Shown piece after piece: positions 5,359 to 55,795 of a stretch of DNA of 64,000 nucleotides. The notes under the pieces were generated by a model. The model had not been told where the DNA came from. It was given only the letters and a program-made list of their open reading frames with translations, and did no database searches. Origin of the DNA: an archaeon. GTDB lineage: Archaea; Iainarchaeota; Iainarchaeia; Iainarchaeales; GCA-2688035. Numbering within the stretch: position 1 is the first letter of the stretch; each line of letters starts with the position of its first letter. A program made the position numbers and the translations under genes. Location of the stretch: assembly GCA_041645325.1 (NCBI GenBank), contig JBAZQI010000002.1, forward strand, positions 8,850 through 72,849. The letters run 5' to 3'.

Positions 5359-5362
5359 ATTC

Positions 5363-6322
5363 TTGGTTATGAGAGATTATTCTATGCTATCGGAAAAAGC
5401 CAAGGGGGTACTATACAATCAAGGTTATCGGATTATTGGAAACCACAGTGCGGTAAAGACCTGTCTTTGGTGCAAAAAGGCATTGCGGAGCGAAGGGGTT
5501 TGTTATAAAGACAGCTTTTACGGTATCCAATCCCACAGATGCGTCCAAATGACTCCGGCTTTAAGAAATTGTAACCTTCGCTGCCTGTGGTGCTGGAGAG
5601 CGGTAGAGTTTACTGAAGCGGATTGGAAAGGCCCAGTTAATAGTCCCAAAGAGATAGTTGACGGTTGCCTTGAATCACAAAAAGAATTGCTATCGGGCTT
5701 CGGCGGATATGAAAAAGTAAATAAAAAGCGCTTGCAGGAAAGCAAAAATCCCTCAAACTTCGCTGTTTCCTTAATCGGAGAGCCTACACTTTACCCAAAG
5801 CTCCCAAAATTGATAGATGAAATAAATTCTCGTGGCATGACAAGTTTTCTTGTTTCCAACGGAACCAAGCCCGAAATGATAAAAAGATTAATCAAACACC
5901 AGCCAACGCAGTTATATATTACGCTTCCCGCCCCAAATGAAATAATATTCAATAAATGCTGCAGACCACTTATCAAAGATGCTTGGCAGAAAATTCAGCA
6001 ATCGCTTTCCCTGCTATCAAGATTTGACAGAAGCGTTGTCAGATTAACCTTGGTAAAAGACTTAAACATGATTAACCCTCCAGAATACGCTGATATCTTA
6101 TCAAAAACCAATGTTGATTTTGTCGAATTAAAGGCATACATGTATGTTGGTCTAAGCAGGCAGCGCTTGAAGATTGAAAACATGCCATTGCACGGGGAAG
6201 TAAAGGAATTTGCGGAAAAAATCAACGAAAGCCTTGGCTACAGCTTTGCAGGCGAAAGCAGGCCCTCAAGGGTAGTGCTGCTCTCAAAGAAAAAAGGCGG
6301 AACAAAAATTGCAAAGCCCTAA
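5363..6322 (+). CDS. taw1: tRNA 4-demethylwyosine synthase Taw1/TYW1-like radical SAM enzyme
   Basis: HSAVKTCLWCKK upstream Cys cluster plus radical-SAM motif CNLRCLWCW (Cx3Cx2C). Also FAVSLIGEPTLYP and SNGT motifs; about 320 aa like archaeal Taw1. Confidence 0.6.
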   Translation: MVMRDYSMLSEKAKGVLYNQGYRIIGNHSAVKTCLWCKKALRSEGVCYKDSFYGIQSHRCVQMTPALRNCNLRCLWCWRAVEFTEADWKGPVNSPKEIVDGCLESQKELLSGFGGYEKVNKKRLQESKNPSNFAVSLIGEPTLYPKLPKLIDEINSRGMTSFLVSNGTKPEMIKRLIKHQPTQLYITLPAPNEIIFNKCCRPLIKDAWQKIQQSLSLLSRFDRSVVRLTLVKDLNMINPPEYADILSKTNVDFVELKAYMYVGLSRQRLKIENMPLHGEVKEFAEKINESLGYSFAGESRPSRVVLLSKKKGGTKIAKP

Positions 6323-6738: not shown

Positions 6739-6885
6739 ATGAAAAAAATAAATAAGGACCAGGCGCTGACCACCATCGCAACCATCCTTTTATTGTTCAC
6801 TGCCATGATTACTTGGAACATTTATTCTTGGCTAATTTTGGTGGCGGTAATATTTATTATAACCGCCTGGTATTTCAAAAAATAG
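6739..6885 (+). CDS. Possible 48-aa small transmembrane protein
   Basis: ATG at 6739 gives MKKINKDQALTTIATILLLFTAMITWNIYSWLILVAVIFIITAWYFKK, with two hydrophobic stretches. Found by eye in the intergenic region; too short for the ORF track. Confidence 0.2.
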   Translation: MKKINKDQALTTIATILLLFTAMITWNIYSWLILVAVIFIITAWYFKK

Positions 6886-6910
6886 CTGGCGTGCCCGGCG
6901 CAAATCGTAA

Positions 6911-7516
6911 TTATCCTGTCCTTTCTTCCACTTCGCCTTCCGGCTCTGTTTCGCTGAAAACCTGGGCCTGGAACTTGAACACATGCGTTTCTTTTGACTG
7001 CCACATGCTTTCCATTAGCCCTGCCTTGGCACAGCATTGCTCCAAGAACTCCTCGGCATCCCAGCCCTGTTCTGTGGCAACCTGCGGCAGAAGCAGCCCG
7101 GAATGCCTGCCCCTCTGCACAATCAGGCCGTCTTCCCCGATTTTGACAAACTTCGGCAATTTTTTGCGCTCGCACAGCATCTCTTCAGGCACTGTCAAAA
7201 CGCTCACTTCAACAATAATGCCATTCAATTCGGTTGACTTCATTGGCGGAAACCTCGGGTCATTCAGCGCGGACTCAACAGCCATTTCGGAAACAGCGTT
7301 CCAAAGGGACTTCAGGGGATAAGGCATTCCAATGCAGCCCCTGAGCTCTTTTCCCGGAAAAGAATGCAGTGTCACAAAAACTCCACGCGGCTCAAAAAGC
7401 AGCTTGTCATCGCACATCTCCCTTAATCCGCGCCCTGAGGCAAGCGTGTAATTTACGCTTTTCCTCGCAAGCTTTACAAGCTCTTCTCCCTGCTTCAAAG
7501 AAAGCCTTCCAGGCAT
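6911..7516 (-). CDS. AMMECR1 domain protein
   Basis: GVFVTLHSF...LRGCIG and SGLLLPQVATEQGWDAEEFL are the AMMECR1 signatures. Start moved to MPGRLSL because the longer ORF start would overlap the divergent neighbour. Confidence 0.8.
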   Translation of the reverse strand: MPGRLSLKQGEELVKLARKSVNYTLASGRGLREMCDDKLLFEPRGVFVTLHSFPGKELRGCIGMPYPLKSLWNAVSEMAVESALNDPRFPPMKSTELNGIIVEVSVLTVPEEMLCERKKLPKFVKIGEDGLIVQRGRHSGLLLPQVATEQGWDAEEFLEQCCAKAGLMESMWQSKETHVFKFQAQVFSETEPEGEVEERTG

Positions 7517-7632
7517 AGAAAAATATTGGGTGAAAGGGTATTTTACGCTTTTCCCCGGTCCCTTTTCAATGCCTTCGTTTTTCGCCGAAAACCTTGCCCT
7601 GCTTTTAAATGTTTCCGGCAGCGCTTTTTTTA

Positions 7633-16965: not shown

Positions 16966-18912
16966 ATGAACAAACAATTATTGCTGTTATTCCTCGGGTT
17001 ACTGATTTTGCCAAGCGCGATTTCAGCCTCATGCGGCCTTGCCAACGACAACCAGCTAATCTTCCGGATAAGCGGCGCAACAGACGCGCACGCCGAGCTC
17101 TGGAACGGAGCAAGTGGATATCCCACGGAAATATGCTACAACACGATTTTCGGCTCGGAATATGCTGGCGCAAGCCCGCATTCCGGAAACACCGTGCTAA
17201 AAGCCTCTGCGGCAACAGATGCGCACGTTGAACAATCAAATCAGGCAAACTACCTGACAAACATAAGCTACGGCAGCCTTGCATGCACCTATGGGGCAAA
17301 CTGCGGCGCAGGCGAAACCTGCATTGCCACAATCAGCGGGGCAACAAACGCCCATGTAAGCTCATTGTGCAGCGGCGCAGGAAGCTATCCCCTAAAAGTG
17401 TGCTGCAAAGACACACCTGCGGCTCCGCATTCCTGCGAAATTACAGGCGTTGACCCTGCAACAATCAGGGTTTATGAAGGGGAAACAACAGTAAGCCTTG
17501 ATTATTTGGATTTCTCCTTTAATCCTGCTGCCAGTTCACTTAACTGCGGTGACGGCGGCGCGAGCAGCAATTTTTCCTGCGCAGGAGCCGGTGGCACAGG
17601 CACCTGCAGTTTTGACTGCAGCAACTATGATGATTTGGCCTCTTTTCCATTGGCGGCGTCTTTGCTGGACAATGCGGAAGTGGTTGTTTGCACCAATGAC
17701 GGCGTCTTTATTTTTGTTTACGGCACAATAGTCAAGATTGTTCCGACTTCTTTGAATGCAGGCGATTTTTTTACCACAGCCTATGCCCAGGTGCAGCTTA
17801 GCGGCACCGGCGAACTAGCCGAAGATGGTGAGGCGCCTGTTCCGGATTCTGTGGCATATTTTGCCGACCCGAGAAAAATCTATACTGAAGTGCGTATTTT
17901 TCCGCAAGGCTTTACATGGGATGACTGGGTATTGAAGACTGTGTCTCTTTCCGTGGATATTTCTTATGGAGGCTCATTTACCTTTAATTTTTCCGATAAT
18001 ATCCTCTTTCCGAATTTTGTTGACGACTTTAAGGATCTTCCCGCTGCTGATTACACTTTGCAGGTGAAAACCTATGAGTTTCCAAATACTTTGCTGAATG
18101 AGCCTCCTTCGGTAAACTTCAGCCTTACTGCCGGTGCCAATGTTCCTCCTAATTCAATAATAGACACGCCTGGCTCGAACCAAACAATAACAGTTGGGAA
18201 CAGCATTAATTTTACTGGTCATGGGACAGATACTGATGGGGTAATTGTGGCACACAGTTGGACTTGTGTGGCAGCAAGTGGAATTTGTCCGGCAATTTTT
18301 CCAACGAACCTGCAAAATCCGGGAAGCACGGTATTCAGCACTGTAGGGCAGTACACAATAGCCTATACTGTGCAGGATGATGACGGAGCATGGGATCCAT
18401 CGCCTGCAACGAGAATAATAACAGTCAATGCGGCTGCAGGCTCAGGCGCATACCTGCGGCTGACAAAGATTGATGTGGCGCCTGAAAATTTCAGTGGCGG
18501 TGCGCCGCCTGATTTTACCACGCTGAACGTGACTGTGAAGAACTTCGGCGACTCAACCGTTGCTTCCATAGGCCTTAAGGTTTTTGGGGCAACGGACTTT
18601 TCCATGGCTGCCGGAACAGAGCTTGCTTCCGCAACCTCGGATACCTGTGCCTTGGACCAGGGAGAGGAATGTACATTGCCGTTGGACGAAATTACTGTTT
18701 CCTCTTTGGTGCCTGGCTCCTACAAGTTGATTATAAAAGCCTTTGATAGTGATGGCATTGAACACGATTCTGATTCGGTGTTTTTCGTCGTCATTGGCCC
18801 TGTTCCAGTGCCTGAGCTTGGCCTTGTTTTTGTTCCCCTGCTTGCCCTTTCCGCCCTTGCAATAATGTTCTTTGCAGGCAGAGGAGCGAAAAGGCTAAGA
18901 AATAGCTTATAG
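16966..18912 (+). CDS. Secreted surface protein with three ~40-aa ATDAH Cys-containing repeats, a PKD-like domain and a C-terminal TM/basic sorting-like tail
   Basis: Signal peptide LLLLFLGLLILPSAISASC. Repeats SGATDAHAELWNGASGYPTEICY, ASAATDAHVEQSNQANYLTNISYGSLACTY and SGATNAHVSSLCSGAGSYPLKVCC. PKD-like GHGTDTDGVIVAHSWTC...YTIAYTVQDDDGAWD. C-terminus PVPELGLVFVPLLALSALAIMFFAGRGAKRLRNSL. Confidence 0.6.
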   Translation: MNKQLLLLFLGLLILPSAISASCGLANDNQLIFRISGATDAHAELWNGASGYPTEICYNTIFGSEYAGASPHSGNTVLKASAATDAHVEQSNQANYLTNISYGSLACTYGANCGAGETCIATISGATNAHVSSLCSGAGSYPLKVCCKDTPAAPHSCEITGVDPATIRVYEGETTVSLDYLDFSFNPAASSLNCGDGGASSNFSCAGAGGTGTCSFDCSNYDDLASFPLAASLLDNAEVVVCTNDGVFIFVYGTIVKIVPTSLNAGDFFTTAYAQVQLSGTGELAEDGEAPVPDSVAYFADPRKIYTEVRIFPQGFTWDDWVLKTVSLSVDISYGGSFTFNFSDNILFPNFVDDFKDLPAADYTLQVKTYEFPNTLLNEPPSVNFSLTAGANVPPNSIIDTPGSNQTITVGNSINFTGHGTDTDGVIVAHSWTCVAASGICPAIFPTNLQNPGSTVFSTVGQYTIAYTVQDDDGAWDPSPATRIITVNAAAGSGAYLRLTKIDVAPENFSGGAPPDFTTLNVTVKNFGDSTVASIGLKVFGATDFSMAAGTELASATSDTCALDQGEECTLPLDEITVSSLVPGSYKLIIKAFDSDGIEHDSDSVFFVVIGPVPVPELGLVFVPLLALSALAIMFFAGRGAKRLRNSL

Positions 18913-20460: not shown

Positions 20461-22302
20461 ATGAAGGGATCCATTTTTCTAATCGTGCTTGCGGTTGCAG
20501 CAATAGCGTTAAGCGGCTGCGTGCAACCCGCTGTTTGCGGAAATGGAATATGCGAAACAGGGGAAACACTGCAAAGCTGCCCGCAAGACTGCGGGCAACC
20601 GGCAGAATCGCATTTTGAGTGCTCAAGCCAGCAATGCATGCAAGTGCCAGGTGGAGGAACGGACGAATGTGTAACAAATGCGGAATGCATAACGCCAACG
20701 CACTTTGAATGCCAAAGCCAAGCATGCGTGCAAGTGACCGGCGCGGGAACAGACGAATGCACAGCAAACGCGGAATGCACAGCACCAACGCACACCGAAT
20801 GCCAAAACCAGCAATGCATTACAGTCAGCGGCGCTGGAACAAACCAATGCCAGGCAAACCAGGATTGCACAATAGCCTCAGTTTGCGGAAATGGCGCGGT
20901 TGAGCAAAATGAAGAGTGCGATGGCAATTTAATGTGCCAAGAAGGATACAACTGTGAAAGCTGCAAGTGTGTTGAAATGCCCGTTGCTTGTGGCAATGGG
21001 ATAATCCAGGAAGGAGAAGATTGTGATGTTGAGAATATATGTAGCGAAGGTTTTGAGTGCAAAGATTGCAAGTGTATAAAGAAGGAAGCTGTTTGCGGAA
21101 ATGGCCTGTGCGAGTACTTGGAAGACAAAACTAATTGCCAAGCCGATTGCGACAAGTGTATGGAAATCTATGACGGATACAATAATCCTTCGGCGAACAG
21201 AGCAAACATAATTTTTGCTGCTTTTGAGGTTGATTCAATAAAAGACAAAGCCAAGCAAGCTTTGGATTTGGACGAAAAAACATTGGGCTTGTTTTCGATA
21301 GAGCCCTTTAAAAGCAATAAAAACAAATTCAACTTTTGGTATGTTGACAAAAAATATGCCTCATCAAATGAAGCCTTGTCAGATGAAGCCAAAAAAGAAA
21401 TTGAAAGAATCTGCAATTACAGCAACACTTATTCTTATTATATTGCAAAAGACATAGACAACTTTATGCCCCTGGGAACAGCTGGACAGGGCCCTGGCAA
21501 TAAAGCCACAATTCGCTGGTACAAAGACGATCCAGATCCGCAAACTAATACCATAATAAGTACGGTCATTCATGAGTCAGGCCATTTAATAGGGCGATTA
21601 AAAGATGAATATGTGCTGGCGACAGGAAATGGCTCCATCTTTGATCAAGGCGAATACAAGCTTGACGAAAGTCTAGTCGAAAGAAACATATTCTTTGATT
21701 GGGAATCTTACAAAAATAATGGCAAAACAACAGAGGAAGAATGCCTGCAAAAAACCCATTGGAAAAGCCTTATCGGAAGTGGTTGCGGAAATCCTGCTGT
21801 TGTGGACTGCATTGAATGGCATTTAAAATGGGCTTTTGTGACAGATGAATCAGCAGCCCAAACATCATACGCCAAAATAGTTGGAGCTGATGTGAATTTT
21901 ACAATGCCTGAAAAGATTGACTCGCTTTCAGCAATTTACTACGGAGAAAACGCCTTGAAGATTACCAGCGCTTGCGAATCAAAAGATGGAAAAAACTGGT
22001 TTTGCTCGATATCAAATACTACAGCAGCCATTCTTAGCCTGATTGTGAATGGAGAACGAACCGAATTGAACTCCAACCTAAGACTGTCAGGCGGTGCTAT
22101 AAAATGCAAGGAAGGTATGCCTGACTGTATTATTGAAATTTCTTGCTTTGAGGGGGCACTCTACAAGCAGTACGATGTTTTTAGGCCAACATTTAACTCA
22201 ATAATGAATGAGCTTATAAATCGGCAGAGAGGGCAATATTCGTTTGGCAAAGTAAATGAACAGTTAATACAAAGCGAGTTAGACAAATACTCAAGCAGTT
22301 AA
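20461..22302 (+). CDS. Secreted lipoprotein: Cys-rich repeat modules fused to putative zinc metallopeptidase domain (HExxH...DEY, M64-like), paralogue 1
   Basis: Lipobox IALSGCVQP and the module VCGNGICETGETLQSCPQDCG. Three 26-aa HFEC..Q.C..V.G.GTDEC..N.EC repeats. Two CGNG....EECD/GEDCD repeats of the Myxococcus Cys-rich-repeat type. Catalytic-looking VIHESGHLIGRLKDEY. Confidence 0.6.
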   Translation: MKGSIFLIVLAVAAIALSGCVQPAVCGNGICETGETLQSCPQDCGQPAESHFECSSQQCMQVPGGGTDECVTNAECITPTHFECQSQACVQVTGAGTDECTANAECTAPTHTECQNQQCITVSGAGTNQCQANQDCTIASVCGNGAVEQNEECDGNLMCQEGYNCESCKCVEMPVACGNGIIQEGEDCDVENICSEGFECKDCKCIKKEAVCGNGLCEYLEDKTNCQADCDKCMEIYDGYNNPSANRANIIFAAFEVDSIKDKAKQALDLDEKTLGLFSIEPFKSNKNKFNFWYVDKKYASSNEALSDEAKKEIERICNYSNTYSYYIAKDIDNFMPLGTAGQGPGNKATIRWYKDDPDPQTNTIISTVIHESGHLIGRLKDEYVLATGNGSIFDQGEYKLDESLVERNIFFDWESYKNNGKTTEEECLQKTHWKSLIGSGCGNPAVVDCIEWHLKWAFVTDESAAQTSYAKIVGADVNFTMPEKIDSLSAIYYGENALKITSACESKDGKNWFCSISNTTAAILSLIVNGERTELNSNLRLSGGAIKCKEGMPDCIIEISCFEGALYKQYDVFRPTFNSIMNELINRQRGQYSFGKVNEQLIQSELDKYSSS

Positions 22303-22359
22303 GGCTTGACTGCAAAAGCAGTTGGCTTAAAATTTGGCGCCCCAAAAGAAAGGGCGTCC

Positions 22360-22701
22360 CTAATTTTCGCCCTTGAGTTCAAGGATGGCTGCGGCAATGT
22401 CGCCCTCGTTTTTTTTCAATGCGGCCTCGGCTTTTTTCTCGGAAACGCCTGCCTGCCTTACAACCATTTCAATGTCCTCGCTGCTAATGCCTTTTTCTTC
22501 CTCTTTCTCCTCGCCCATTATAGTGTAGGTTTTTTTGCCCTGCACCTCAACAATTGTAACGCTCGGGTTTTCAATCACAATCTTTTTGGTCTTGCTTTCA
22601 ATGACAACCCGCTCGGCATCCATTTCCTCGTTCTTGATGCCCATCTGCTTCATCATTTTCTGCATTGTCCTTGGGTCCAAGCCCTTCATTCCCGGAAACA
22701 T
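22360..22701 (-). CDS. nac: Nascent polypeptide-associated complex protein (NAC alpha, archaeal)
   Basis: NAC domain VVIESKTKKIVIENPSVTIVEVQGKKTYTI and C-terminal UBA-like SSEDIEMVVRQAGVSEKKAEAALKKNEGDIAAAILEL. Confidence 0.85.
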   Translation of the reverse strand: MFPGMKGLDPRTMQKMMKQMGIKNEEMDAERVVIESKTKKIVIENPSVTIVEVQGKKTYTIMGEEKEEEKGISSEDIEMVVRQAGVSEKKAEAALKKNEGDIAAAILELKGEN

Positions 22702-22779
22702 TCAACCAACTCCCCTTTTGCTAAATAAACCCTTTTATTGGAAAAAGCTTTTTAACCTGCGCCATCCTTATTTGTTTCC

Positions 22780-23433
22780 ATGAAAAAGGACCTTGTGAGT
22801 TCCTTTGAACAGTTGCAGAAAATGCTTCCCCCTGGCCTTGCAATAGAAAACGAAGCCGCAAGGGTTGCTGCGCTCAAACATTACCTTTCAAAGGGCGGCG
22901 TAATACACATTGCTCCAAGCGAAAGCGGCTGGCCAAAATTGCTGTACCCCACAAAAGCCCATTTGAGGAAAAAAATCGACGAAACAAGGGCACTGCGCAC
23001 CCAGTATTACAGGCGCCTTGAAAGCTGGCAGCACAAGTTTGACGGCGCAAAAAGCTACCACCAGGTGCACAGCATAAAAAAGCTCAAAGAGCCATTGTAC
23101 TGGAAACACATGGCCAAATGCATGGTTGATGCAGACTACAGGTCAGACGCCGGCAAGGTAAATCTGCCTGTGCACCTTGTTGCCGACCCAAGGTGGAAGC
23201 CAATGGTCAAAACCTTTATCTCAGACCTGGACTACAGGAAACAGCTTGTTCAAACAGTTGACGAAAGCATTGTCTACAAAAACGACAAAAGGGTGGCGCA
23301 ATACGCAGACCTGCTCCAGGACTTCAGGATGGAACAAAGCAACCGCAAAATAGGTGAACTCAATCAAAAGCTTGCAGCCCTTGACGCGGACATAACCGCA
23401 ATGCAAGAACTCGCAAGATGGGCAAGCTTTTAG
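22780..23433 (+). CDS. Hypothetical protein
   Basis: 217-aa ORF with plausible coding periodicity. No motif recognised. Confidence 0.4.
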   Translation: MKKDLVSSFEQLQKMLPPGLAIENEAARVAALKHYLSKGGVIHIAPSESGWPKLLYPTKAHLRKKIDETRALRTQYYRRLESWQHKFDGAKSYHQVHSIKKLKEPLYWKHMAKCMVDADYRSDAGKVNLPVHLVADPRWKPMVKTFISDLDYRKQLVQTVDESIVYKNDKRVAQYADLLQDFRMEQSNRKIGELNQKLAALDADITAMQELARWASF

Positions 23434-23700
23434 AAGCCTTTCTTTCTAAAAGCCTTTTAATAAAAGGCTTGCGAAAAACGATGGCGAAAAATGCTTCGCG
23501 AGAAAGAAAGCCTCCTGGCAAAACCATTGGTTTTGAAAGGCCCAGCAAAGCTGCAGCTTTGCCGGGTGGGAAAGAAAGCTTTTTGCTTCGCAAAAAGAAG
23601 CCTTTTTTTCTGCTGAAAAACCTTAGAGATGCTTTAGCATCTCTTACGGTTTCTGAACCTTATAGGTTCAGAAAAAGCCTTGGGAAAAAATGCGCTAATT
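23434..23700. repeat. Intergenic repeat cluster: hairpins plus second copy of the ~70-bp double-hairpin module and the AAAAGCCTTGGGAAAA motif
   Basis: 23617-23690 (AAAAACCTTAGAGATGCTTTAGCATCTCTTACGGTTTCTGAACCTTATAGGTTCAGAAAAAGCCTTGGGAAAA) is about 95% identical to 10693-10768. Additional hairpins include AGCCTTTTAATAAAAGGCT and CTTTTTGCTTCGCAAAAAG. Confidence 0.8.
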
Positions 23701-23837
23701 TTTTGCTAAGCATTTTTTTCCATTTCAGCGGATTCTTATTTTTCCGTTTGCAATTGCCTGCAGGAAGTCCATATCAAGGCTGCCCGGGTTACGAGGCCTT
23801 GCCAGGAAAATTTTTGCAGCAGTTTTGCCGGCAGCTT

Positions 23838-24101
23838 CTAGCGCCTTCCGATTCTATTTCTTCCTCTACTAATTTGCCCCAGTAAATCGCTATCGATTTT
23901 TGAAATGTCATGATGCCTTTCCATTATTATTTTTGCAGCTTCTTGTGCGCCAATCTTATTTGCGCGCATCAAATCCTCGACCAGCTTGGAAGTGTAGCCG
24001 ATTTTATCTATTTTGGTTTCACCCACCAGGGGTTTTCCCGTTTGAGTCACTCGCCGTCTTTTTACCTTTCTTACCCTTCTCATAATTGCGTGTTTCACCA
24101 T
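23838..24101 (-). CDS. Small basic protein, possible HhH-type nucleic-acid-binding protein
   Basis: MRRVRKVKRRR... with LMRANKIGAQEAAKII, which is helix-hairpin-helix-like. Family not recognised. Confidence 0.3.
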   Translation of the reverse strand: MVKHAIMRRVRKVKRRRVTQTGKPLVGETKIDKIGYTSKLVEDLMRANKIGAQEAAKIIMERHHDISKIDSDLLGQISRGRNRIGRR

Positions 24102-24235
24102 TAGCCATATGCTTTTCGCTGTTTAAATTTGTTTCTTTTCCAGATGCTCTGGGTTAAACCCTTTTTTTTACGCAATCCGCCGCAAAAAATCGCATAGCAA
24201 AGTAATAAATTCCAGTTTCGCTTTCTTTCTTTGCA

Positions 24236-24757
24236 ATGAGCTCCAAAAAAATCGCCTTAATGCTTTCAGCCATGTTCGCGCTTTTGCTGTGCGCAAGCGT
24301 GTTTGCGGACTTTCAGGTTTCTTCCTTTGAAATTGACCACAGCAAGGTTTTCGTGGCGTCGGGTTCATCAGAGCCGGTTGTTGCCGCTGTTTCGGTTCGC
24401 AATCTGGGCTCAAGCGCAGGCAATGCGCGCCTTGAGGTAATTGTCAAAGACGACGATGGAACGGCAATGCTCACTCAAATCGTGCTAATAAACAACCTTG
24501 CGGCCGGTGGCACCAGGGCACTTGGCGCCGCAGACGGCCTTGTTTTTGTCATCCCAGGCGCTTGGGACGCCGGCAATTACACTTTTTATGCAAGTGTTTA
24601 CGATGCAAGCGACAATTTCCTTGATGACCAAAAAATCAGGATTCTGACCCTTCAAATCGACAAGCCTGCTGTCATTCCCGAATTCCAGGCAATCCTGCTT
24701 CCACTGGTTGCGTTTTCTGTCCTTGCCATGCTTTTCTTGTCCGGAAAGCGGAAATGA
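24236..24757 (+). CDS. Small secreted beta-rich protein with PEF-CTERM-like sorting tail
   Basis: Signal peptide ALMLSAMFALLLCASVFA. C-terminus PAVIPEFQAILLPLVAFSVLAMLFLSGKRK is PEF plus TM plus basic, resembling archaeosortase PEF/PGF-CTERM signals. Confidence 0.5.
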   Translation: MSSKKIALMLSAMFALLLCASVFADFQVSSFEIDHSKVFVASGSSEPVVAAVSVRNLGSSAGNARLEVIVKDDDGTAMLTQIVLINNLAAGGTRALGAADGLVFVIPGAWDAGNYTFYASVYDASDNFLDDQKIRILTLQIDKPAVIPEFQAILLPLVAFSVLAMLFLSGKRK

Positions 24758-24804
24758 ACATGCACCACCTAGCTTTAAATATTTCCTGCCCCTTCTTTTA
24801 GCTG

Positions 24805-26667
24805 ATGAAAAAAGGTTTTGTTTTTATTTTGCTTTTGCTTGCATTGCTTTTGTCAAGCGGGTGCATTCAGCCACCAGTCTGCGGAAACGGAGCATGCGAA
24901 ACAGGAGAGAATCAACAAAACTGCCCACAAGACTGTGGAACAAGTCCAACGCACTTTGAATGCCAAAACCAAAAATGTGCAATTGTTCAAGGCGCGGGAG
25001 TTGATAAATGCCAGACAGACAAACAATGCCTAACTATTCCGGAAAAACACAACGAGTGCAATGAACAACAACAATGCATTGAAATATCAGGAAGCGGACC
25101 GAATGAATGCCAAAGCAGTACTGAATGCAAGCTGCCAAAGTCAGGTAATATTAATTTTGTTAAAATCCATGAAGGCACATATACAGGCACAAAAATAAAC
25201 TTATATTTTGTTAATTTTGGTTACCCCTCAGACAACTATGCCTCTTTTGTTTATGATGTCAACTACGCATTGTTTGCTGATGATTCTTTCGAAGGAAAAA
25301 GACAAAGAGGTCTTCTCAATGCAGAGCCATTTAAAACTTACAAAGAAAGATTTGACATTTATCAACTAAAAAAAATATTGGATGGGGAGGAAATAGGTTG
25401 CGGTGATTCGTGCAACATGATGGATGTGACCGTTTTTATAGAGTCTGCTGATGGGCTAAACCTTGGAAAGTGTTCCAATGATTACTCTTTAATTGATGAC
25501 AAATATTCTCTTGTTAATTGCAATGAATTTGTCCTCTTAATTAAAACACTTCCCTCCGGTTGGCAAGTAACGGCTGATAATGAATATATGCCTATACAAA
25601 CGGGGATTGAATCCCGCCTCGAAATATTTTTACATGAAATGGGGCATTTATTTGGCGGCATTAGGGATGAATATGACGAAGGTTATAACCAAGTATTACA
25701 ACAGACGGGCGAATATGACAACTTAAATTCCTTAAGCGTGTCACTTGAAGGGCAAAATTGCGATGTCAGGCCTGGCTGCCCAAGCTGGTGCAGTGGACCG
25801 GCAAAAAAAGTTCAAATAACAGGCGCGTGCACTTACAGTACGACTGAAAGCGCGTGCAATTCAAACTATGCTGACAGCTGTGTGTGGATTACAAATCCAG
25901 AATTAGTTGATTATTTTGGGTCAAATTGCATTCCACAATGGCCTAGCGGGGATGTTCTTTCATGGAATAGCGGGAATCAATGCGGTGAAGAATTAGGCTG
26001 TTACTATGGTTGTGATGGTTTTGGTTGGAGACCAACTAAAATTTCCCTTTATGGCCCGAATCTTTATATGTGGGATTCTGTTGAATGGAATAATTATACA
26101 AAAGATGGCCTTGAACCTTTTAATTCAATTCAAAAAAAAATGATTAATGAGAAAATAGAAAAAAATACAAATTACGTTAGCGGCAATGACATCCCGATCA
26201 GCACTGAAGTAGCAAGGACTAGAATGGTTTGGGACTTGCCTGAACTTACCGGATTTATCCCTGGCGGAATGTGGAATTTGAGCAAATCTGAAACCCAAAC
26301 CATTTATCACATCGATTTGCGTTATATTAAAGTAGACCAAAGGTCAGAATTTGCGCTCGACATCATTGAAGACCCCGCCTCTATGATAGTTACTGCACTA
26401 CCAGACTCATTTTTGGATGAAAAAGTAAGTGAAGCACGAGGCATATGGAAAGATATATCATTGAAGGAAATTAATGGCAACAAGATTTTTGAAGGGACAA
26501 CAGATGCTTCGGCAGGAAAACAAAAATATGCCTTGTGGATATCTGAAGACAATTTTGTTAGGGGCTGGAACGGCAATGATGAAGGCACTGTTATTGATGA
26601 TGCCTTATTTGATGCTCTTCTAAACGCATACCTTAAAAAATACCCCTCAACATACGGGCGCGGATAG
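24805..26667 (+). CDS. Secreted lipoprotein Cys-rich/M64-like putative zinc metallopeptidase, paralogue 2
   Basis: LLSSGCIQPPVCGNGACETGENQQNCPQDCG, then two HFEC-type repeats, then FLHEMGHLFGGIRDEYDEGYN. Lower GC than paralogue 1. Confidence 0.55.
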   Translation: MKKGFVFILLLLALLLSSGCIQPPVCGNGACETGENQQNCPQDCGTSPTHFECQNQKCAIVQGAGVDKCQTDKQCLTIPEKHNECNEQQQCIEISGSGPNECQSSTECKLPKSGNINFVKIHEGTYTGTKINLYFVNFGYPSDNYASFVYDVNYALFADDSFEGKRQRGLLNAEPFKTYKERFDIYQLKKILDGEEIGCGDSCNMMDVTVFIESADGLNLGKCSNDYSLIDDKYSLVNCNEFVLLIKTLPSGWQVTADNEYMPIQTGIESRLEIFLHEMGHLFGGIRDEYDEGYNQVLQQTGEYDNLNSLSVSLEGQNCDVRPGCPSWCSGPAKKVQITGACTYSTTESACNSNYADSCVWITNPELVDYFGSNCIPQWPSGDVLSWNSGNQCGEELGCYYGCDGFGWRPTKISLYGPNLYMWDSVEWNNYTKDGLEPFNSIQKKMINEKIEKNTNYVSGNDIPISTEVARTRMVWDLPELTGFIPGGMWNLSKSETQTIYHIDLRYIKVDQRSEFALDIIEDPASMIVTALPDSFLDEKVSEARGIWKDISLKEINGNKIFEGTTDASAGKQKYALWISEDNFVRGWNGNDEGTVIDDALFDALLNAYLKKYPSTYGRG

Positions 26668-26877
26668 CAGTACCGTTTGCCCGCCATGCAAATCTGGAAT
26701 GCGCCCCGATTCCGCCATTAAACCCCAAAAAAGCATGCAAAAATCCTGAAATTAAAATCCTGATTATTGGAAACTGTTCTGCAGAATAAGTTCCGATCTT
26801 TTTTATTCTGCCTTTTCTTCGACTTCGCCTTTTCTTACAATATGTTTTAAATAGCGGCTAATTCTTATGATATTGCA

Positions 26878-28563
26878 ATGAAAAAAGAATTTTTGCTTGT
26901 TTCTTTGCTTGTTGCGGCGCTTGCATTAAGCGGGTGCATTCAGCAGCCGGTTTGCGGAAACGGAGCATGCGAAGCAGGCGAGAATCAACAAAACTGCATG
27001 GAGGATTGCAAACTGACTGATGCAAATTGTTCTGATGGAACTACAGATGGAAGTTGTTCAATAACAAATGGCTTGCTTTGCAATAATGGAAAGCTTGAAA
27101 TGAACTGTGAAAAGTGCGTTTGCACTCCATTAATCGCTTGTTCTGGAGGCAATTGTGGAAAAAGAAATGTTGCAGAAGCAAACTATAATTGCACTTTTTG
27201 CAATGGTTTTTGCTTTGCAACGGATTCCCGGCTAAAGTCAATGTGTGAAAATAGTGTCTTTTATGAATGGAATCCTGAAAATGGCGAAGGAAAATCTTGT
27301 TTGACAGACCAAGATTGCACTTTGAGAGATTATCCACGGTGTGTGAAAAATGTTTGTTTACAGTCACTTCTGCATGAATATCCAACAAAAATCGCAGTAT
27401 CTTACCCGCGTTATGTTCAACAAAACAAACCGTTTTCATTTAAAGTAGATGTGGAAAATACCACTACGACACAGTTAACGTTCAGGCTATTTGATGTTTT
27501 TACCAGCTACTACAATCAGCAGGACAAAAAAATTGGATTTGATGAATACAAGGAAATAGCGCCAAAAAGCAAAGCTAGTTTTGAGATAACAAGCCCTGGA
27601 TTAGATGAAGTTTCAGCAGCATCAACGGTTTTCTTTAGATATAACATGCAACAGGACCGCCAGATATACGGCTCTTTTGGCTGGGAGTCTTTTGAGCATG
27701 GCCCAATAATTGTTGGGACTTGCCCTGAATCAGAAACAGAAATCTGTGGCGATTTGAAATATTGCCCAAAAGACAGGTTGGGCATCTGCTCAAATGGCAT
27801 ATTTTACCCTGTTGAACCAGGAACAGCCTGCAGCACCAATTCCGATTGCGAAAGCGGGCTTTCTGTTTGCCTGAACCATTCGTGCAGAGCAACTAACACA
27901 CAATATGGGTTAAATCCCTACATTAAAAATGAAGTGGGGATATTGGGAATTTTTATTTACAATGATAATGCTAAATTCGAAATCGAAAAAAAAACTAAGA
28001 ATGCCGATTTGAAATGGCTAACTGATAGCGCTAACGCGTGGGTTAAATCAGAAAGGGCATATTGGAATGCAACAAACGATTTTGATTTAGAGTTCACGGC
28101 AATAGAAAAAGAATGCAAGTTAGATAAAAAGCAATACCTTGAATTGTTTAAGTCTTGTGAATCTGGTGAAACAAGGAATTGCACTGAAAAAGAACTTGCT
28201 GCTTGTGGCATAGAACAAAAATTTGATGTAATAGCAATGCACGAATTTTTTGAAGAGGGATTATTGGACCAAGAAATAACTGATGAATTAATCAGGATAG
28301 GTTATCCTGGCTCTGCAGGATTAAATGAGGGAAACATCGTTAGATTTAGCTATAATACTGGCGATGAAGGAAAGACAAATTCTGTGCTGATTCACGAAAC
28401 TTTACACTCATTTGGAGAACAGGACCTGTATATAACAAACAAACAATATAATTCATTGTATCAAGAAAGAAACTGCAATCTGTATAATGCAATCTGGTCT
28501 GCCTTTGACAATAATCCGCACCTTTGCGAATTAGAAGCGAAATTAATCGGATGGAAGCAATAA
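26878..28563 (+). CDS. Secreted lipoprotein Cys-rich/putative zinc metallopeptidase (HETLH...DLY variant), paralogue 3
   Basis: LALSGCIQQPVCGNGACEAGENQQNCMEDC with a different Cys-rich middle section and C-terminal SVLIHETLHSFGEQDLY. AT-rich. Confidence 0.5.
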   Translation: MKKEFLLVSLLVAALALSGCIQQPVCGNGACEAGENQQNCMEDCKLTDANCSDGTTDGSCSITNGLLCNNGKLEMNCEKCVCTPLIACSGGNCGKRNVAEANYNCTFCNGFCFATDSRLKSMCENSVFYEWNPENGEGKSCLTDQDCTLRDYPRCVKNVCLQSLLHEYPTKIAVSYPRYVQQNKPFSFKVDVENTTTTQLTFRLFDVFTSYYNQQDKKIGFDEYKEIAPKSKASFEITSPGLDEVSAASTVFFRYNMQQDRQIYGSFGWESFEHGPIIVGTCPESETEICGDLKYCPKDRLGICSNGIFYPVEPGTACSTNSDCESGLSVCLNHSCRATNTQYGLNPYIKNEVGILGIFIYNDNAKFEIEKKTKNADLKWLTDSANAWVKSERAYWNATNDFDLEFTAIEKECKLDKKQYLELFKSCESGETRNCTEKELAACGIEQKFDVIAMHEFFEEGLLDQEITDELIRIGYPGSAGLNEGNIVRFSYNTGDEGKTNSVLIHETLHSFGEQDLYITNKQYNSLYQERNCNLYNAIWSAFDNNPHLCELEAKLIGWKQ

Positions 28564-31808: not shown

Positions 31809-34800
31809 ATGGATAACCCTTTGAACAGCATAGTTGAGTCTTTCAAGAAAGGCTACTATTTCCTTGAAGACCGCTACTATATGCTTTTGGACAAGGTAAA
31901 CGGGCATGTTCCAATCTACAAGGCAATTGACCCTGTGGACCGTGTGTTTCCCTCCTTTGTGCTGCTGATTGCCGTACTGGCCTGCCTTGCAATTCTCCTG
32001 ACTTTTACGCTCTTGCCGCAGGTTTCACTGTCTGCAACACTGCGCGTGCTTGACGAAAACAACAACCCGCTGGAGGGCGCGCACATCTCGGTTTCATTCA
32101 ACGACGAGTCAATAGGCCTTGACACCGACGATTTCGGCGAAGCAAAGCTTGCGTTGCCGCAAAGCGGGGTTGAAGCCGCAATACTCGTGTCAAAGGACGG
32201 TTTTGACAGGCTAAGCCAGACCATAACACTGAAAACAAACGACCTTGTTGACCTTCTTCTCAGCAGGACAAAAGCCTCCTTTCAAGCCACCAAATCCACA
32301 ATATACGTTGTCGACTCAAGAACAAACAGGCTGATTAAGGGACAGGTGCACCTTGAATTCACCTGCTCAACCGGCACCCCAGCCCCTGCGCCTCTATCTG
32401 GCGCAACAGGCGAATTCAAGGACATGGCGGTTTCAGGTGAATGCGGCACGCTTCTTGCAAAGGCCATGGCTGAAGGATACGAGCCAAAGGCAAGCGTTGC
32501 CATAACAAGGAATCCAACCTACCTAAAGCTTGACCCTCTTGACCCTGTTGAAACAACAACCGGAATAAACGTGATTGTAAGGGACCATGCCGGAAACGCG
32601 GTGCAGGGCGCAATAGTCAAGGCCTTCGGCGGCGGCAACGTGCTGGTGCAGCAGCTTTCAACCGACACAAGCGGCACAGTCTCAATCCAGGGCATTGAAC
32701 CCGGCATTTACTCGGTTACCGCAAGCCATTCCGACGGAAGGTATGCCGAAAAAACCGGCGTAGAAGCCCTTATAGGCACGCCCGCAACTGTCACGCTTTC
32801 CTTCGCACAGCCGGCCACAGGCGACGGAGAGAAAATATCCATGCACTTCACCGATGCGGTAACAAACGCAAGCATCCCGAACGCAACAGTCCTGATTTAC
32901 GCAAACAACCTGCTCTTTGATTCAAAAACAAGTGATTCCTCAGGCCTAATAGAAAAGGCGGTTGACGGCAACAACTCGTCATTCATTGCCGTGGCATCAC
33001 ACGACAATTATGTAACAAGAATAATCACAAACGTGGCGGTAATGGACGCATCCAGCAAAACCCCGCAGGCAATAAAGCTCACGCCACTCGCATCCGACGG
33101 CTCAAACAGCGGCAAGGTAAGCATCTTTGTTTCCGACTATGAAACAAAAAAGCCGGTTGAGGGCGCACAGGTATTCCTCTACAGCGCGGACTATCCCGAA
33201 ATAATACTCGATTATCCCTACGCGCTCACAAACGCGGACGGCAACATGCTTATTTCAAGGCTGCCTGAAGGCTCTTACTTTGTAAAGGTAAAAAAGTCCA
33301 ATACCGAGGGAACAAGCGAAACAGGCAAACTTGTAGCTGGTGCAACCCTGGGCTTTTCCATTATGCTTATTACAACTGAAGGCAAGGTCAAGGCTGAGGT
33401 TGTTGACAAAAAAACAGGCAGTCCGATACAGGGCGCTGAAATAACCTTTACTGACTACGCCACTGATTCCGTGCTCCAAAGCGGCTTTTCTGACGCGCAG
33501 GGAAAGCTTGAATCACAGCCCTTCAAGTCAAACAAGACCGTTTACGTGAAAGCCGTAGCCGCAGGATACTTCTCTGCAACAAGCATGCCGCTTCCCATAG
33601 TGTCAAAAAGCGCGCAAAGCGTCAGGCTGGAACTTGACTCAAAAAGCGATATAAGCCTTGACCAGAATATGGCAATCAAATTCGAGGGCTTTTACGCCGA
33701 CAAGGCCCTGAAGCAGAAGGCAACAACCCTCGAATCAGGCGAAACAGGCCAGCTCTACTATTATATCAAATTCACGGTGCTTACCGCAAAAGACGCAAAC
33801 TACTCGAATATTATGCACCACATAAGGCTCGATTCAGAGGAAAAAGGCAAAAGCCCGGAAAAACTGCCTACCCCGACAGGATACACCGCAAGGCTTCTTA
33901 ACTACGCCGCAAGCTCGCCCTACTCATCGACAATCTTCAGCGCATGCTACAATCCTGAAAATGTATTCTCAAGCCCGGAGGCCTGCATAACAGACCTTGT
34001 CGCAAAACAGGCAAACACGCTTTGGGCAACAGCCTCAAGGCAAACAGCTTACACCCTTGTGCTTAAAATGGAAATCGAGCAAAACCTTGAGGACGGCACG
34101 GAAATAGAGCTGCGCTACCAGGGCAAAGCCATAATGAACAATTCCGAATTCATGACACAGCCATTCCTGCAGACCTTCAGAATAGGCGAGCCAATCTGCT
34201 CGCCACCCGACTGCCCTGCAGCCATAATGCGCTTCTGGCTCCAGGATTCAAACGGCAACAAGGCAATCCTCCAAAGCTTTTCGGGCGAAAGCGATTACAC
34301 GACCGGGCAGGAAACCGAGCTTGCAAGCTATTCCAATTACAAGCTGTTCTACGAGGTCCGCAACACAAGCGGTGTGGAACTGACAGCAACACTGAAGCTT
34401 GAAAACGCTGACCCCCCCAATGTGGTTTCAATACAGGGCGAAAACATTCAAACCGCATTTTCAGGGCTGCAAATTGCCGCCCACACTGTTGCCTCACAGG
34501 GCTCGCCTGTGCAGCTGAAAACAGGTAGTGAAGCCGCATTCACTAAAATCAAGGCCTCTTTTACTTCAACACAGGGCAAGGCCATGGAACAATTCATCCC
34601 GTTCACGGTAACAGCCGCAAAAGAGCTCACACTGGCGGTTTCGCCCTCGGTGCTAATACCAAACGATGGCAGCCAGATTTTAAGCGGCTATGTTAAGTCA
34701 AGTGATGGCACCCCGGTTCAGGGCGCCTCAATAAGCATCTTCCTGCCTGGCAACACGCTGTTCGAATCGCTTGTTTCCGGCGAAACAGGGGCTTTCTCCT

Positions 34801-36317
34801 CAACAAGGAACTTCAGGCTGCAGCCCAACGAAAAGGTCAGCTTGGTGGCAACAGCGCCGGGCTACAAGAAGACAACTGTTGAGGTGCCGGTAAATTTCGG
34901 CGACTACTTTGACCCAAGGTACAACTGCATAGAGGTTCCCTCACTTGGAGAAGACGTCCGCACATTCAAGGACACAAGGCCGGGCGGCAAGGGCCTGTTT
35001 GAAGTTGTCAACAACTGCGAAACGCCTGTTGAAATAATGTTCAACAGCAAGCTCAAAGTTGAGCCGAAGCAAATGCAGATTCCGGCCGGTGCAAGCGCGC
35101 AGGCAACATTTACCGCAGACAATCCCGAGGGAGGCGAACAGGTTTACCTCGGGCAATACCCGATTTACGTCAAGGCAAAAATGCAGGGCGACGTGCGCTT
35201 TGTGAACGCAGTGAAAGTGCTTGTGATTATTTCAGACCCTGTGGGAAGCTGCTTTGCAATTGACAAGACAAGCTTTAATCTTCTGGACAGCAACATGGAC
35301 AGCGGCGAAATAACAAATGATTGCGCTGTCCAGTTCAACGACGCATGGGCCCCTGAGCTTGCCCTTGACTCCTTCAAGGCGATAATTAGAAGGGATGATG
35401 TGCAGATTCCGGACATGTTCCCCTTCGAATGGGGCGTGAGGGCAGAACTGAGCCTTTCAACGCCTGTAAGGGTTGAATTTGAGGAAAAAAGGGAAAACAC
35501 ATGGAACGATTTTTACATTCCCACAGGGGCTGATACAGGCCCTGATCATACCATAAACAAAAGCATAACGGTTAACGTGGGAGAAAGCATGGAAGACATA
35601 ACCGCCCTGAAATTTGATTCGATAATTATCCCTATTTTGCCAATAGACTTGTCCGGTGTTATTGACTACGGTTCCATTGCATATGTAGCAAGCGCGAACA
35701 TTTACGTTGACGGCATTCCGGTGCCGGTGCCTGAATGCGGCTTAAGTGGCTGCACCTGGGAAGAAAGCGGCAAGACAAATGATGCGGCAAAATGCCATTA
35801 CATCGCAGCATCGTGCTATTACAACTCGTTTGAAGTCCAGCTTCAACGTGACTCAATAGGCTCAATCACGTTCCCAATATACAACTCAGAAAACAGGGCT
35901 TTCCTGTTTTTCTCGCTAAACGGCACGCTCATTGAAACATCATACGGCTTTGACGTAAACCACACTCAATTTGAGCTTGAGTTTGGGCCCCCGCCCACAA
36001 ATCTTTTCCGCTCAACAATAGTTCCTGTCAGGGGCCTGGGCTTTGCGCTTGGAAAAATTGACCTCTCGCTGGCAAACAAGCTTGGCGAAGGGCTCTATTC
36101 GGTTGACGATGCAAACATCACAGCATACAGCAACAGCCCAGAAGTTGAAGTATGGCTTGTTGACAACGTCATATATGGAAAATATGTGGGCAATGATGCA
36201 GCAGATGATGACCAAGGGGCTACGCCTTTTACGATAAAGGACCTTTATCTCGACACAACCCAGTATAATTTAATTTACGTTGACGATTATGTAAACGAAC
36301 TGAGGCCTGCCAAATGA
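31809..36317 (+). CDS. Giant (1502 aa) type-II membrane-anchored surface protein with multiple carboxypeptidase-regulatory-like/Ig-like beta-sandwich repeats
   Basis: 40-aa cytoplasmic N-terminus then TM FVLLIAVLACLAILLTFTLL. At least six ~80-aa repeats of the CarboxypepD_reg type (for example GINVIVRDHAGNAVQGAIVKAF...TDTSGTVSIQGIEPGIYSVTAS). The C-terminal 700 aa carry no recognised motif. Confidence 0.6.
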   Translation: MDNPLNSIVESFKKGYYFLEDRYYMLLDKVNGHVPIYKAIDPVDRVFPSFVLLIAVLACLAILLTFTLLPQVSLSATLRVLDENNNPLEGAHISVSFNDESIGLDTDDFGEAKLALPQSGVEAAILVSKDGFDRLSQTITLKTNDLVDLLLSRTKASFQATKSTIYVVDSRTNRLIKGQVHLEFTCSTGTPAPAPLSGATGEFKDMAVSGECGTLLAKAMAEGYEPKASVAITRNPTYLKLDPLDPVETTTGINVIVRDHAGNAVQGAIVKAFGGGNVLVQQLSTDTSGTVSIQGIEPGIYSVTASHSDGRYAEKTGVEALIGTPATVTLSFAQPATGDGEKISMHFTDAVTNASIPNATVLIYANNLLFDSKTSDSSGLIEKAVDGNNSSFIAVASHDNYVTRIITNVAVMDASSKTPQAIKLTPLASDGSNSGKVSIFVSDYETKKPVEGAQVFLYSADYPEIILDYPYALTNADGNMLISRLPEGSYFVKVKKSNTEGTSETGKLVAGATLGFSIMLITTEGKVKAEVVDKKTGSPIQGAEITFTDYATDSVLQSGFSDAQGKLESQPFKSNKTVYVKAVAAGYFSATSMPLPIVSKSAQSVRLELDSKSDISLDQNMAIKFEGFYADKALKQKATTLESGETGQLYYYIKFTVLTAKDANYSNIMHHIRLDSEEKGKSPEKLPTPTGYTARLLNYAASSPYSSTIFSACYNPENVFSSPEACITDLVAKQANTLWATASRQTAYTLVLKMEIEQNLEDGTEIELRYQGKAIMNNSEFMTQPFLQTFRIGEPICSPPDCPAAIMRFWLQDSNGNKAILQSFSGESDYTTGQETELASYSNYKLFYEVRNTSGVELTATLKLENADPPNVVSIQGENIQTAFSGLQIAAHTVASQGSPVQLKTGSEAAFTKIKASFTSTQGKAMEQFIPFTVTAAKELTLAVSPSVLIPNDGSQILSGYVKSSDGTPVQGASISIFLPGNTLFESLVSGETGAFSSTRNFRLQPNEKVSLVATAPGYKKTTVEVPVNFGDYFDPRYNCIEVPSLGEDVRTFKDTRPGGKGLFEVVNNCETPVEIMFNSKLKVEPKQMQIPAGASAQATFTADNPEGGEQVYLGQYPIYVKAKMQGDVRFVNAVKVLVIISDPVGSCFAIDKTSFNLLDSNMDSGEITNDCAVQFNDAWAPELALDSFKAIIRRDDVQIPDMFPFEWGVRAELSLSTPVRVEFEEKRENTWNDFYIPTGADTGPDHTINKSITVNVGESMEDITALKFDSIIIPILPIDLSGVIDYGSIAYVASANIYVDGIPVPVPECGLSGCTWEESGKTNDAAKCHYIAASCYYNSFEVQLQRDSIGSITFPIYNSENRAFLFFSLNGTLIETSYGFDVNHTQFELEFGPPPTNLFRSTIVPVRGLGFALGKIDLSLANKLGEGLYSVDDANITAYSNSPEVEVWLVDNVIYGKYVGNDAADDDQGATPFTIKDLYLDTTQYNLIYVDDYVNELRPAK

Positions 36318-55794: not shown

Positions 55795-55795
55795 T

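Follow-up and report, generated by a model that had tools for sequence, protein, structure and literature searches.

Introduction

Metallopeptidases of family M64, also called igalysins, belong to the metzincin clan and were the subject of structural work on the IgA protease (IgAse) of Thomasclavelia ramosa in 2025 (PMC12237041). Their zinc motif HExxHxxxGxxD has one residue more than the canonical metzincin motif HExxHxxGxxH/D; its Asp serves as third ligand of the zinc, the Glu next to it coordinates a structural zinc, the Tyr may act as a "tyrosine switch", and a Met-turn (CIMR) lies beneath the site (PMC12237041). As cited in the same paper, the Met-turn stabilizes the zinc site and forms its hydrophobic base, without supplying a catalytic residue (PMC12237041). 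Here we compare with these and other metzincins the products of three genes, P1, P2 and P3, from 64,000 nucleotides of the archaeal contig JBAZQI010000002.1 (this whole stretch is called the window), which an earlier reading of the DNA without database searches (the sequence-only reading) had described as a triplicated family of lipobox-anchored, M64-like peptidases. All three open reading frames (ORFs) that it had listed are present on the forward strand:

20461-22302, forward strand: P1, 613 aa
24805-26667, forward strand: P2, 620 aa, with lipobox, two 30-aa repeats, divergent M64-like domain and extra C-terminal domain
26878-28563, forward strand: P3, 561 aa, with lipobox, Cys-rich region, β-sandwich, Cys knot and C-terminal metzincin-like domain

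P2 and P3 are annotated as hypothetical proteins in the source record. The window is archaeal: it has genes for NAC, for a Hel308-type helicase, for a CDP-archaeol synthase and for a member of the archaeosortase family.

Besides IgAse, the igalysins (MEROPS M64, PF09471) include the Bacteroides proteins BACOVA_00663 (3P1V) and BF3526 (4DF9), and in IgAse lectin, wrapping and sortase-signal domains are present. Snapalysin (MEROPS M7; 1C7K, 4HX3) has the motif HExxHxxGxxDxY, in which an Asp at +11 is the third ligand and a Tyr follows two positions later, whereas adamalysins/ADAMs (M12B) and archaemetzincins (M54) use a His as third ligand and possess a CIM Met-turn. To our knowledge M64 enzymes have been studied so far only as gut-bacterial IgA proteases, and in the library that was searched we found no paper on metzincins of DPANN or on M64 enzymes of archaea. 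The genomes of DPANN archaea are reduced, and these organisms are believed to depend on other cells for their living, which makes their surface hydrolases likely tools for feeding and partner contact.

Results and Discussion

One cassette and three catalytic domains

When P1, P2 and P3 were compared mutually by BLASTP, significant similarity was limited to the N-terminal ~45-112 residues. When all sequences that had been retrieved were included, BLASTP gave foreign best matches for the catalytic domains, with P1 being 33-38% identical to P0002/P0003, P2 47-47.5% to P0026 and P3 43% to P0033, whereas the cassettes, as we call the shared N-terminal parts, match one another best (P1 and P2 with 48% against 38-41% for P0027, P2 and P3 with 70% against 64% for P0035). 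As the similarity is limited to the cassette and the nearest catalytic relatives are foreign, the locus probably contains three different enzymes with one cassette and not a triplication. We thus read it, with a probability of roughly 75%, as three separately derived metzincin-clan zinc metallopeptidases, each fused to the same lineage-specific N-terminal cassette.

A recent triplication of expanding M64-like paralogues, with the third copy diverging and its HETLH being a degenerate HExGH, would explain why the leaders are near-identical and the genes clustered, and P1 and P2 are indeed both related to M64. However, BLASTP does not align the catalytic domains with one another, these domains are closer to proteins from other DPANN-type archaeal metagenome-assembled genomes (MAGs), and housekeeping genes, including NAC on the opposite strand, lie between P1 and P2/P3. 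Since significant similarity is confined to the cassette, a recent whole-gene triplication was rejected, and together with the P3 data below we regard the paralogue explanation as highly improbable. Nor does each protein end in a domain of ~350 aa, as had been assumed: that of P1 has 381 aa and contains an insert, P2 combines ~340 aa with another 165 aa, and P3 has ~215 aa.

The cassette itself would consist of a Sec-type signal peptide with a lipobox Cys, a disulfide-rich CGNGxCExGExxxxCxxDC module and variable Cys-rich spacers. All three proteins start with a K-containing n-region (MK…) and a hydrophobic core followed by (L/S)SGC with the Cys at residue 20, and the module occupies residues 26-44 in each of them. 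The leaders of P1 and P2 share 47-48% identity over 111-112 aa (BLASTP, E=5e-28), those of P2 and P3 70% over 44 aa (E=2e-12), and at the DNA level the first 138 nt of the three genes are 62-73% identical pairwise. The shared leader seen in the sequence-only reading is therefore borne out, with a similarity far above chance. The N-terminal features of P1 are as follows:

20461-20592, forward strand: P1 N-terminal cassette with signal peptide, lipobox L-S-G-C (Cys20) and CGNGICETGETLQSCPQDC module (sequence and rule-based lipobox scan)
20608-20877, forward strand: three 30-aa four-Cys repeats of P1, xHFECxxQxCxxVxGxGxDECxxxxECxxP (Tandem Repeats Finder, TRF)
20881-21150, forward strand: two CGNGxxExxEECD-type repeats and a second CGNGLCEYLEDKTNCQADC module of P1 (below curated cut-offs)

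The HFEC repeats and their varying copy number (three in P1, two in P2, none in P3) had been recognized correctly, but not their length, which is 30 aa and not 26 aa, as TRF found a period of 90 bp with 2.9 copies and 75% matches (20609-20872). Neither this repeat nor the leader module CGNGxCExGExxxxCxxDC matched a curated family in Pfam or NCBIfam. The next repeats of P1 (aa 141-207) are like the Myxococcus cysteine-rich repeat (TIGR02232/PF13948 DUF4215) in their CGNGxxExxEECD signatures. This is a resemblance only: aa 141-230 scored 9.5 bits with TIGR02232 (cut-off 20.8) and 16.2 bits with PF13948 (cut-off 27), and membership of P1 in TIGR02232 was rejected.

Exactly four CGNGxCE modules occur in the window, three in the leaders and one just before the catalytic domain of P1. 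The combination of lipobox and CGNG module is present in a minority of the M64 and P3-family homologues (P0004, P0035 and P0042, with variants in P0027 and P0051), and because most of these homologues do not carry it, the cassette is lineage-specific and not family-specific. The 741-aa protein P0032, a bacterial-type trypsin-like protease, contains ~10 tandem CGNGxCExGExxxxCxxDC modules with a pattern identical to that of the archaeal leader module. The module thus occurs beyond these archaeal proteins, and it is matched by no model of Pfam or NCBIfam.

P1 and P2 in comparison with igalysins

P1 matched Pfam PF09471 (Peptidase_M64) with 34.7 bits (E=1.4e-8; gathering threshold 26) and scored 242.6 bits against a DPANN M64 profile that was built without it. 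A database search gave 24 homologues, the majority of which match PF09471, and those that are named stem from MAGs of Nanoarchaeota or Micrarchaeota. A phmmer search of PDB sequences with P1 returned only a weak match to 3P1V. The following elements were located in its catalytic part:

21157-22299, forward strand: P1 catalytic domain, 381 aa, aligned to the DPANN M64 profile
21301-21345, forward strand: EPFKSNKNKFNFWYV of P1 (profile alignment)
21571-21612, forward strand: P1 zinc motif HESGHLIGRLKDEY, aa 371-384
22183-22206, forward strand: P1 Met-turn RPTFNSIM, aligned with the family's RPTxxSIM

In HESGHLIGRLKDEY the residues H1, E2, H5, D12, E13 and Y14 agree with the igalysin motif, the Asp being 12 positions from the first His; the Gly stands at position 8 and not 9, as it does in several DPANN homologues. 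P1 differs from known igalysins by an insert of ~110 aa between zinc motif and Met-turn. Judged from its sequence, P1 is a bona fide M64/igalysin metallopeptidase and a new archaeal member of a known family. In this respect the locus shows that archaeal M64 enzymes exist. Taken as a whole, with P2, P3 and the cassette included, the findings leave current understanding in place and amount to a useful correction and a modest extension.

P2 gave 19.6 bits with PF09471 and stays below the gathering threshold of 26. Against the DPANN M64 catalytic profile it reached 70.0 bits, compared with 6.0 for the best of 400 shuffles, and the profile alignment spans EPFKTYKERF, HEMGHLFGGIRDEY and GCYYGC…RPTKISL. 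Five relatives were found in the database, of which P0026 is the nearest. P2 is made up of the ~340-aa M64-like domain and a separate C-terminal domain:

25633-25674, forward strand: P2 zinc motif HEMGHLFGGIRDEY, aa 277-290, with the igalysin spacing HExxHxxxGxxD (G9, D12) and in agreement with HExxHxxxGxxDEY
26029-26052, forward strand: P2 Met-turn position RPTKISLY with Leu in place of Met (profile alignment)
26170-26664, forward strand: P2 C-terminal domain of ~165 aa, aa 456-620 (…MVWDLPELTGF…YLKKYPSTYG), 38-51% identical to P0026-P0030

P0026 also has a Leu at the Met-turn position (STEVSLF). The C-terminal domain, which ends with YL(K/E)KYPSTY and had no match in Pfam, is found at the C-terminus of P2 and P0027 and at the N-terminus of P0026 and P0028-P0030, the latter being further secreted DPANN proteins. 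P0026 has an M64-like domain besides it, P0030 a CN-hydrolase domain, and P0028 contains an HEYVH motif. This makes it a mobile module of secreted DPANN proteins. An AlphaFold2 (AF2) model of P2 was of low confidence and poor over this domain, and phmmer and profile searches of PDB sequences with P2 or P3 gave nothing significant. From these alignments P2 appears to be a divergent igalysin with Leu for the Met-turn Met and an additional C-terminal domain, differing from known members in both its Met-turn and its score below the Pfam threshold.

Unlike IgAse, P1 and P2 are archaeal DPANN proteins with a lipobox and a predicted stalk of Cys-rich modules, and their Met-turn segments (S-I-M in P1, I-S-L in P2) have no Cys at the structural-zinc positions as present in the C-I-M of IgAse. 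The M64-like assignment made from the sequence alone thus stands for P1, applies to P2 as a divergent case below the cut-off and fails for P3. The signature that it gave, an HExxH followed by DEY, is present in P1 and P2, but by comparison with the igalysins the third ligand is the Asp of DEY and not its Glu.

P3 and its homologues

P3 matched nothing in Pfam and NCBIfam. Apart from P3 itself, a word-indexed homology search returned no more than a bacterial trypsin-like protein with CGNG modules, which would have made P3 an orphan. This was overturned by an exhaustive HMMER search with residues 166-561, which yielded 37 cluster representatives, 13 of them below 1e-30. The named members are hypothetical proteins, one from a Nanoarchaeota MAG and one labelled "Patescibacteria group bacterium", and a scan of GTDB species genomes with the P3 C-terminal alignment gave two loci, both in archaeal MAGs. 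When 28 members of the family were searched against Pfam, none had a match at E≤0.01, neither to a peptidase family in general nor to Reprolysin or M54. The family has a fixed unit in which a β-sandwich and a Cys knot are followed by a domain of ~215 aa, nearly always located at the very end of the protein, and in P3 we could assign:

27373-27720, forward strand: P3 β-sandwich (CARDB / macroglobulin-like), from AF2 strands at fragment residues 5-115
27910-28560, forward strand: P3 catalytic domain (~aa 345-561, ~215 aa) with five-stranded sheet, backing helix, active-site helix and C-terminal helix
28393-28431, forward strand: P3 zinc motif HETLHSFGEQDLY, HExxHxxGxxDxY, aa 506-518 (28-member alignment)
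28465-28554, forward strand: P3 C-terminal subdomain YQERNCNL…PHLCELEAKLIGW, with C533, L549, C550 and E553 invariant in 28 members

With HETLHSFGEQDLY a zinc-binding-looking HExxH motif is now confirmed in each of the three proteins, at residues 371-384 of P1, 277-290 of P2 and 506-518 of P3. Invariant in the 28 aligned family members are H506, E507, H510, F512, G513 and D516, and Y518 is at least 90% conserved.

The AF2 model of P3 computed from the family alignment is of high confidence (pLDDT 91.3, pTM 0.86). A Foldseek search of the PDB with the whole model led to complement macroglobulin domains and a CARDB domain, as the β-sandwich dominated the matches, and was uninformative for the catalytic domain. 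The nearest solved folds to the catalytic domain are adamalysins and archaemetzincins, without any M64 structure in the top 60. In the model the domain shows the sheet and helix set of metzincins, and its structural neighbours are among them, so that P3 is predicted to have a metzincin fold. Adamalysins and archaemetzincins share 8-17% identity with P3 and differ from it in their His ligand and their CIM Met-turn, P3 having an Asp and no Met. P3 is like snapalysin in motif, in the Asp at +11 and in the Tyr two residues on; it aligns ungapped to the snapalysin segment HETGHVLGLPDHY, and both have a short C-terminal subdomain. The match to snapalysin 1C7K was not significant (E=0.53) and on par with those to M64.

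In favour of counting P3 among M64-like paralogues is a local link between the P3 family and the DPANN M64 family in hhalign (probability 95.6%, E=1.3e-8, 90 columns). The underlying alignment needs a one-residue gap just before the Asp, and against the DPANN M64 profile P3 scored 19.6 bits, in the motif region only. In contrast to what degeneration of a local copy would give, HETLHSFGxxDLY is invariant across a separate family of ~37 representatives, and both the spacing of the motif (Asp at the canonical +11, against +12 in igalysins) and the nearest folds differ from those of M64. HETLH is therefore the invariant signature of a separate family and not a degenerate variant of HExGH; the sequence-only reading had taken it for a variant of the third copy that may have diverged in activity. 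P3 was also rejected as an M64 member, since neither P3 nor any of the 28 members matches PF09471, the motif has no extra residue and M64 is missing from its closest folds. P3 is closest to snapalysin by motif, to adamalysins and archaemetzincins by fold and to M64 by profile, and it falls outside each of these families. We conclude that it represents a separate uncurated family of DPANN-type archaea in the known metzincin clan.

The invariant Leu549, located in PHLC directly before the C-terminal helix, may substitute for the Met of the Met-turn. A metzincin-like family without this Met bears on the old question whether a Met-turn is necessary. Taking the P3 family and the cassette together, one could go further: the ~37 relatives would be a new family-level metzincin lineage, apparently confined to DPANN (one member being labelled Patescibacteria), with a snapalysin-like site and Leu for the Met-turn Met, and the lipobox-CGNG unit would have been swapped between unrelated surface enzymes in a manner like exon shuffling. 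The chances of this wider proposal are, in our opinion, evenly balanced. If true, cassette exchange would provide symbiotic archaea with a modular display of hydrolases on the cell surface.

Predicted anchoring and activity

Lipoboxes were identified by a rule demanding L/V/I at -3, A/S/T/V/I at -2, G/A/S at -1 and C at +1, at the end of a signal peptide with positive n-region and hydrophobic core. P1 and P3 agree with it (L-S-G-C), whereas P2 (S-S-G-C) fits at -3 a looser PROSITE-style rule only; in all three Cys20 follows MK… and 13-15 hydrophobic residues. Like AliA/AliB-dependent archaeal lipoproteins of Haloferax volcanii and bacterial-type lipoproteins, P1-P3 share a (L/S)-S-G-C closing a Sec-type signal peptide, but the demonstrated Haloferax substrates are mostly Tat-dependent and P1-P3 have no twin-arginine. 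Lipoproteins are predicted to be prevalent in DPANN, where AliA (arCOG02177) is present (PMC12462473). We therefore propose that the precursors would be exported by the Sec system and cut before Cys20, which would be lipid-modified by an archaeal AliA-type pathway. The disulfide-bonded modules could act as a stalk or spacer keeping the catalytic domain outside the membrane. In the active site, two His and one Asp would hold the zinc ion while the Glu of the motif would activate the zinc-bound water. Cleavage would be directed at extracellular proteins or at surface proteins of partner cells, and a likely purpose would be peptide scavenging or surface remodelling by an archaeon with a reduced genome.

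P1-P3 are in this way likely to be membrane-tethered extracellular zinc proteases. As a prediction, this supports the view of the sequence-only reading that they are secreted, lipobox-bearing proteins with a zincin/metzincin domain; neither the lack of a zincin fold nor an SGC away from a signal-peptidase II-type position, which it had named as arguments to the contrary, was observed. With three catalytic domains on one cassette, the proteins are candidates for testing archaeal lipoprotein biogenesis beyond haloarchaea.

The proteins might alternatively be secreted or held by an uncleaved signal anchor, in which case Cys20 would be no more than the module's first Cys, or would belong to a Sec signal-peptidase I site. 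The Ser at -3 in P2 would fit such an arrangement, as would the many homologues in both families that have a plain transmembrane (TM) segment or a signal peptide without lipobox; furthermore, Lgt/Lsp are absent from archaea, and Haloferax is the only organism in which the AliA pathway has been demonstrated. Yet five ORFs of the window, including one that has no Cys-rich module, carry the identical (L/S)SGC at residue 20 right after the hydrophobic core, the same lipobox arrangement recurs in homologues from other genomes, and an abundance of lipobox proteins is predicted for DPANN. We consider this alternative unlikely.

P2 and/or P3 could also be inactive pseudo-peptidases in which the metzincin scaffold serves adhesion to host cells. 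Both are without the Met-turn methionine, P2 is below the Pfam cut-off, the β-sandwich of P3 is typical of adhesins, and DPANN lifestyles rely on attachment to a host. Pseudo-enzymes, however, usually lose catalytic residues, whereas P2 keeps the general-base Glu, the two His, the Asp ligand and the Tyr, and in the P3 family these residues are invariant or nearly so, and the methionine that is missing is part of a structural base and not catalytic (as cited in PMC12237041). Loss of activity is thus improbable, still more so than a non-lipidated form.

Several points weigh against our reading of P1-P3 as separately derived zinc peptidases on one lipid-anchored cassette. P2 has a Leu aligned with the Met-turn Met, a residue by which metzincins are defined, and no Met is conserved after the zinc motif in the 28 P3-family sequences. 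The geometry of the P3 zinc site (H506, H510, D516) with Leu549 beneath it is predicted from the motif, and lipidation of P1-P3 from the sequence rule given above. The cassette appears to be more alike within this genome than between genomes, in a small set of sequences. Finally, a gene-neighbourhood comparison for the homologues P0004 and P0026 revealed no conserved context and no operon partner indicating a substrate.

Base composition

The GC content of the whole genes is 0.429 for P1, 0.395 for P2 and 0.384 for P3, compared with 0.462 for the window, so that P2 and P3 are indeed more AT-rich than P1, as had been noted. This does not hold for the catalytic part of P1 (0.391), which is as AT-rich as P2 and P3 (catalytic parts 0.378 and 0.350), and the higher overall value of P1 is due to its repeat region (0.494). 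The GC content at third codon positions (GC3) is 0.34-0.41 in the three genes and 0.31-0.38 in the catalytic parts alone, against 0.48-0.61 in the flanking genes. The low-GC catalytic regions suggest horizontal acquisition, for example from lower-GC relatives, which is possible and compatible with three enzymes on one cassette. A low GC content of 0.35-0.40 (window mean 0.46) marks the stretches 21157-22299 and 25135-28560 and also 4001-6000.

The same GC3 difference could mean that the peptidase genes are foreign or chimeric DNA brought in by MAG assembly and lie outside this genome. They are, however, embedded among archaeal housekeeping genes on a single contig reported as 104 kb, the composition shifts within a single ORF as the 5' module region of P1 has a normal GC content, and an independently assembled Logan contig shows the same order of PEF-protein gene (described below), P2 and P3. 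The Logan contig speaks against a chimera, and we give hardly any credence to this explanation.

Genes around P1-P3

The rule-based scan found five lipobox ORFs in the window, four of which lie within 20.4-29.3 kb. The genes relevant here are:

22360-22701, reverse strand: NAC gene (PF01849, 49 bits, plus UBA domain), between P1 and P2
24236-24757, forward strand: small surface protein with PEF, TM and basic C-terminal tail (GKRK), directly upstream of P2
28687-29271, forward strand: fourth SGCIQ lipobox protein, 194 aa, directly downstream of P3, without CGNG module, GC 0.508
54024-54521, reverse strand: archaeosortase/exosortase-family gene (TIGR04178, 54.7 bits; PF09721, 39 bits)

An ORF at 22306-22728 (forward strand, 140 aa) overlaps the NAC gene on the opposite strand and is almost certainly spurious. 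The small protein upstream of P2 had been called a PEF-CTERM protein; its PEF, TM and basic tail were confirmed but not its membership in TIGR03024, for which it scored 13.1 bits (cut-off 23). The additional SGCIQ lipoprotein that had been reported at the locus was found downstream of P3; it is without a family match in the Pfam and NCBIfam scans, and its GC content is unlike that of the peptidase genes. For the archaeosortase-family gene the top subtype matches were ArtD and ArtE, every one below its cut-off, and it is adjoined by genes for the CDP-archaeol synthase CarS (PF01864, 138.9 bits) and a DUF92 membrane protein (54523-55050 and 55117-55809, reverse strand). Its product may be the enzyme that sorts the PEF-tail proteins of the window.

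Upstream of P1, at 16966-18912 (forward strand), a gene codes for a secreted protein of 648 aa in which a weak PKD domain was detected. The C-terminal PVPEL, TM and basic tail of the protein resemble an archaeosortase sorting signal, and it had no match in NCBIfam. Together with the PEF-tail protein and the SGCIQ lipoprotein this PKD protein fits a surface-protein neighbourhood of P1-P3. The fifth lipobox ORF of the window (7633-10632, forward strand) codes for a 999-aa protein with an LALSGC lipobox, no CGNG module and no Pfam match. A surface protein of 1502 aa is encoded at 31809-36317 (forward strand); it contains at least five CarboxypepD_reg / prealbumin-like repeats as well as MG3-like segments and belongs with the giant adhesin-like proteins that DPANN-type genomes typically encode. 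On the contig of the M64 homologue P0004 (L004), a DDE_Tnp_1 transposase gene (6763-7944) is located ~600 bp downstream of the lipobox-CGNG-M64 gene, which hints that such genes can sit by mobile elements.

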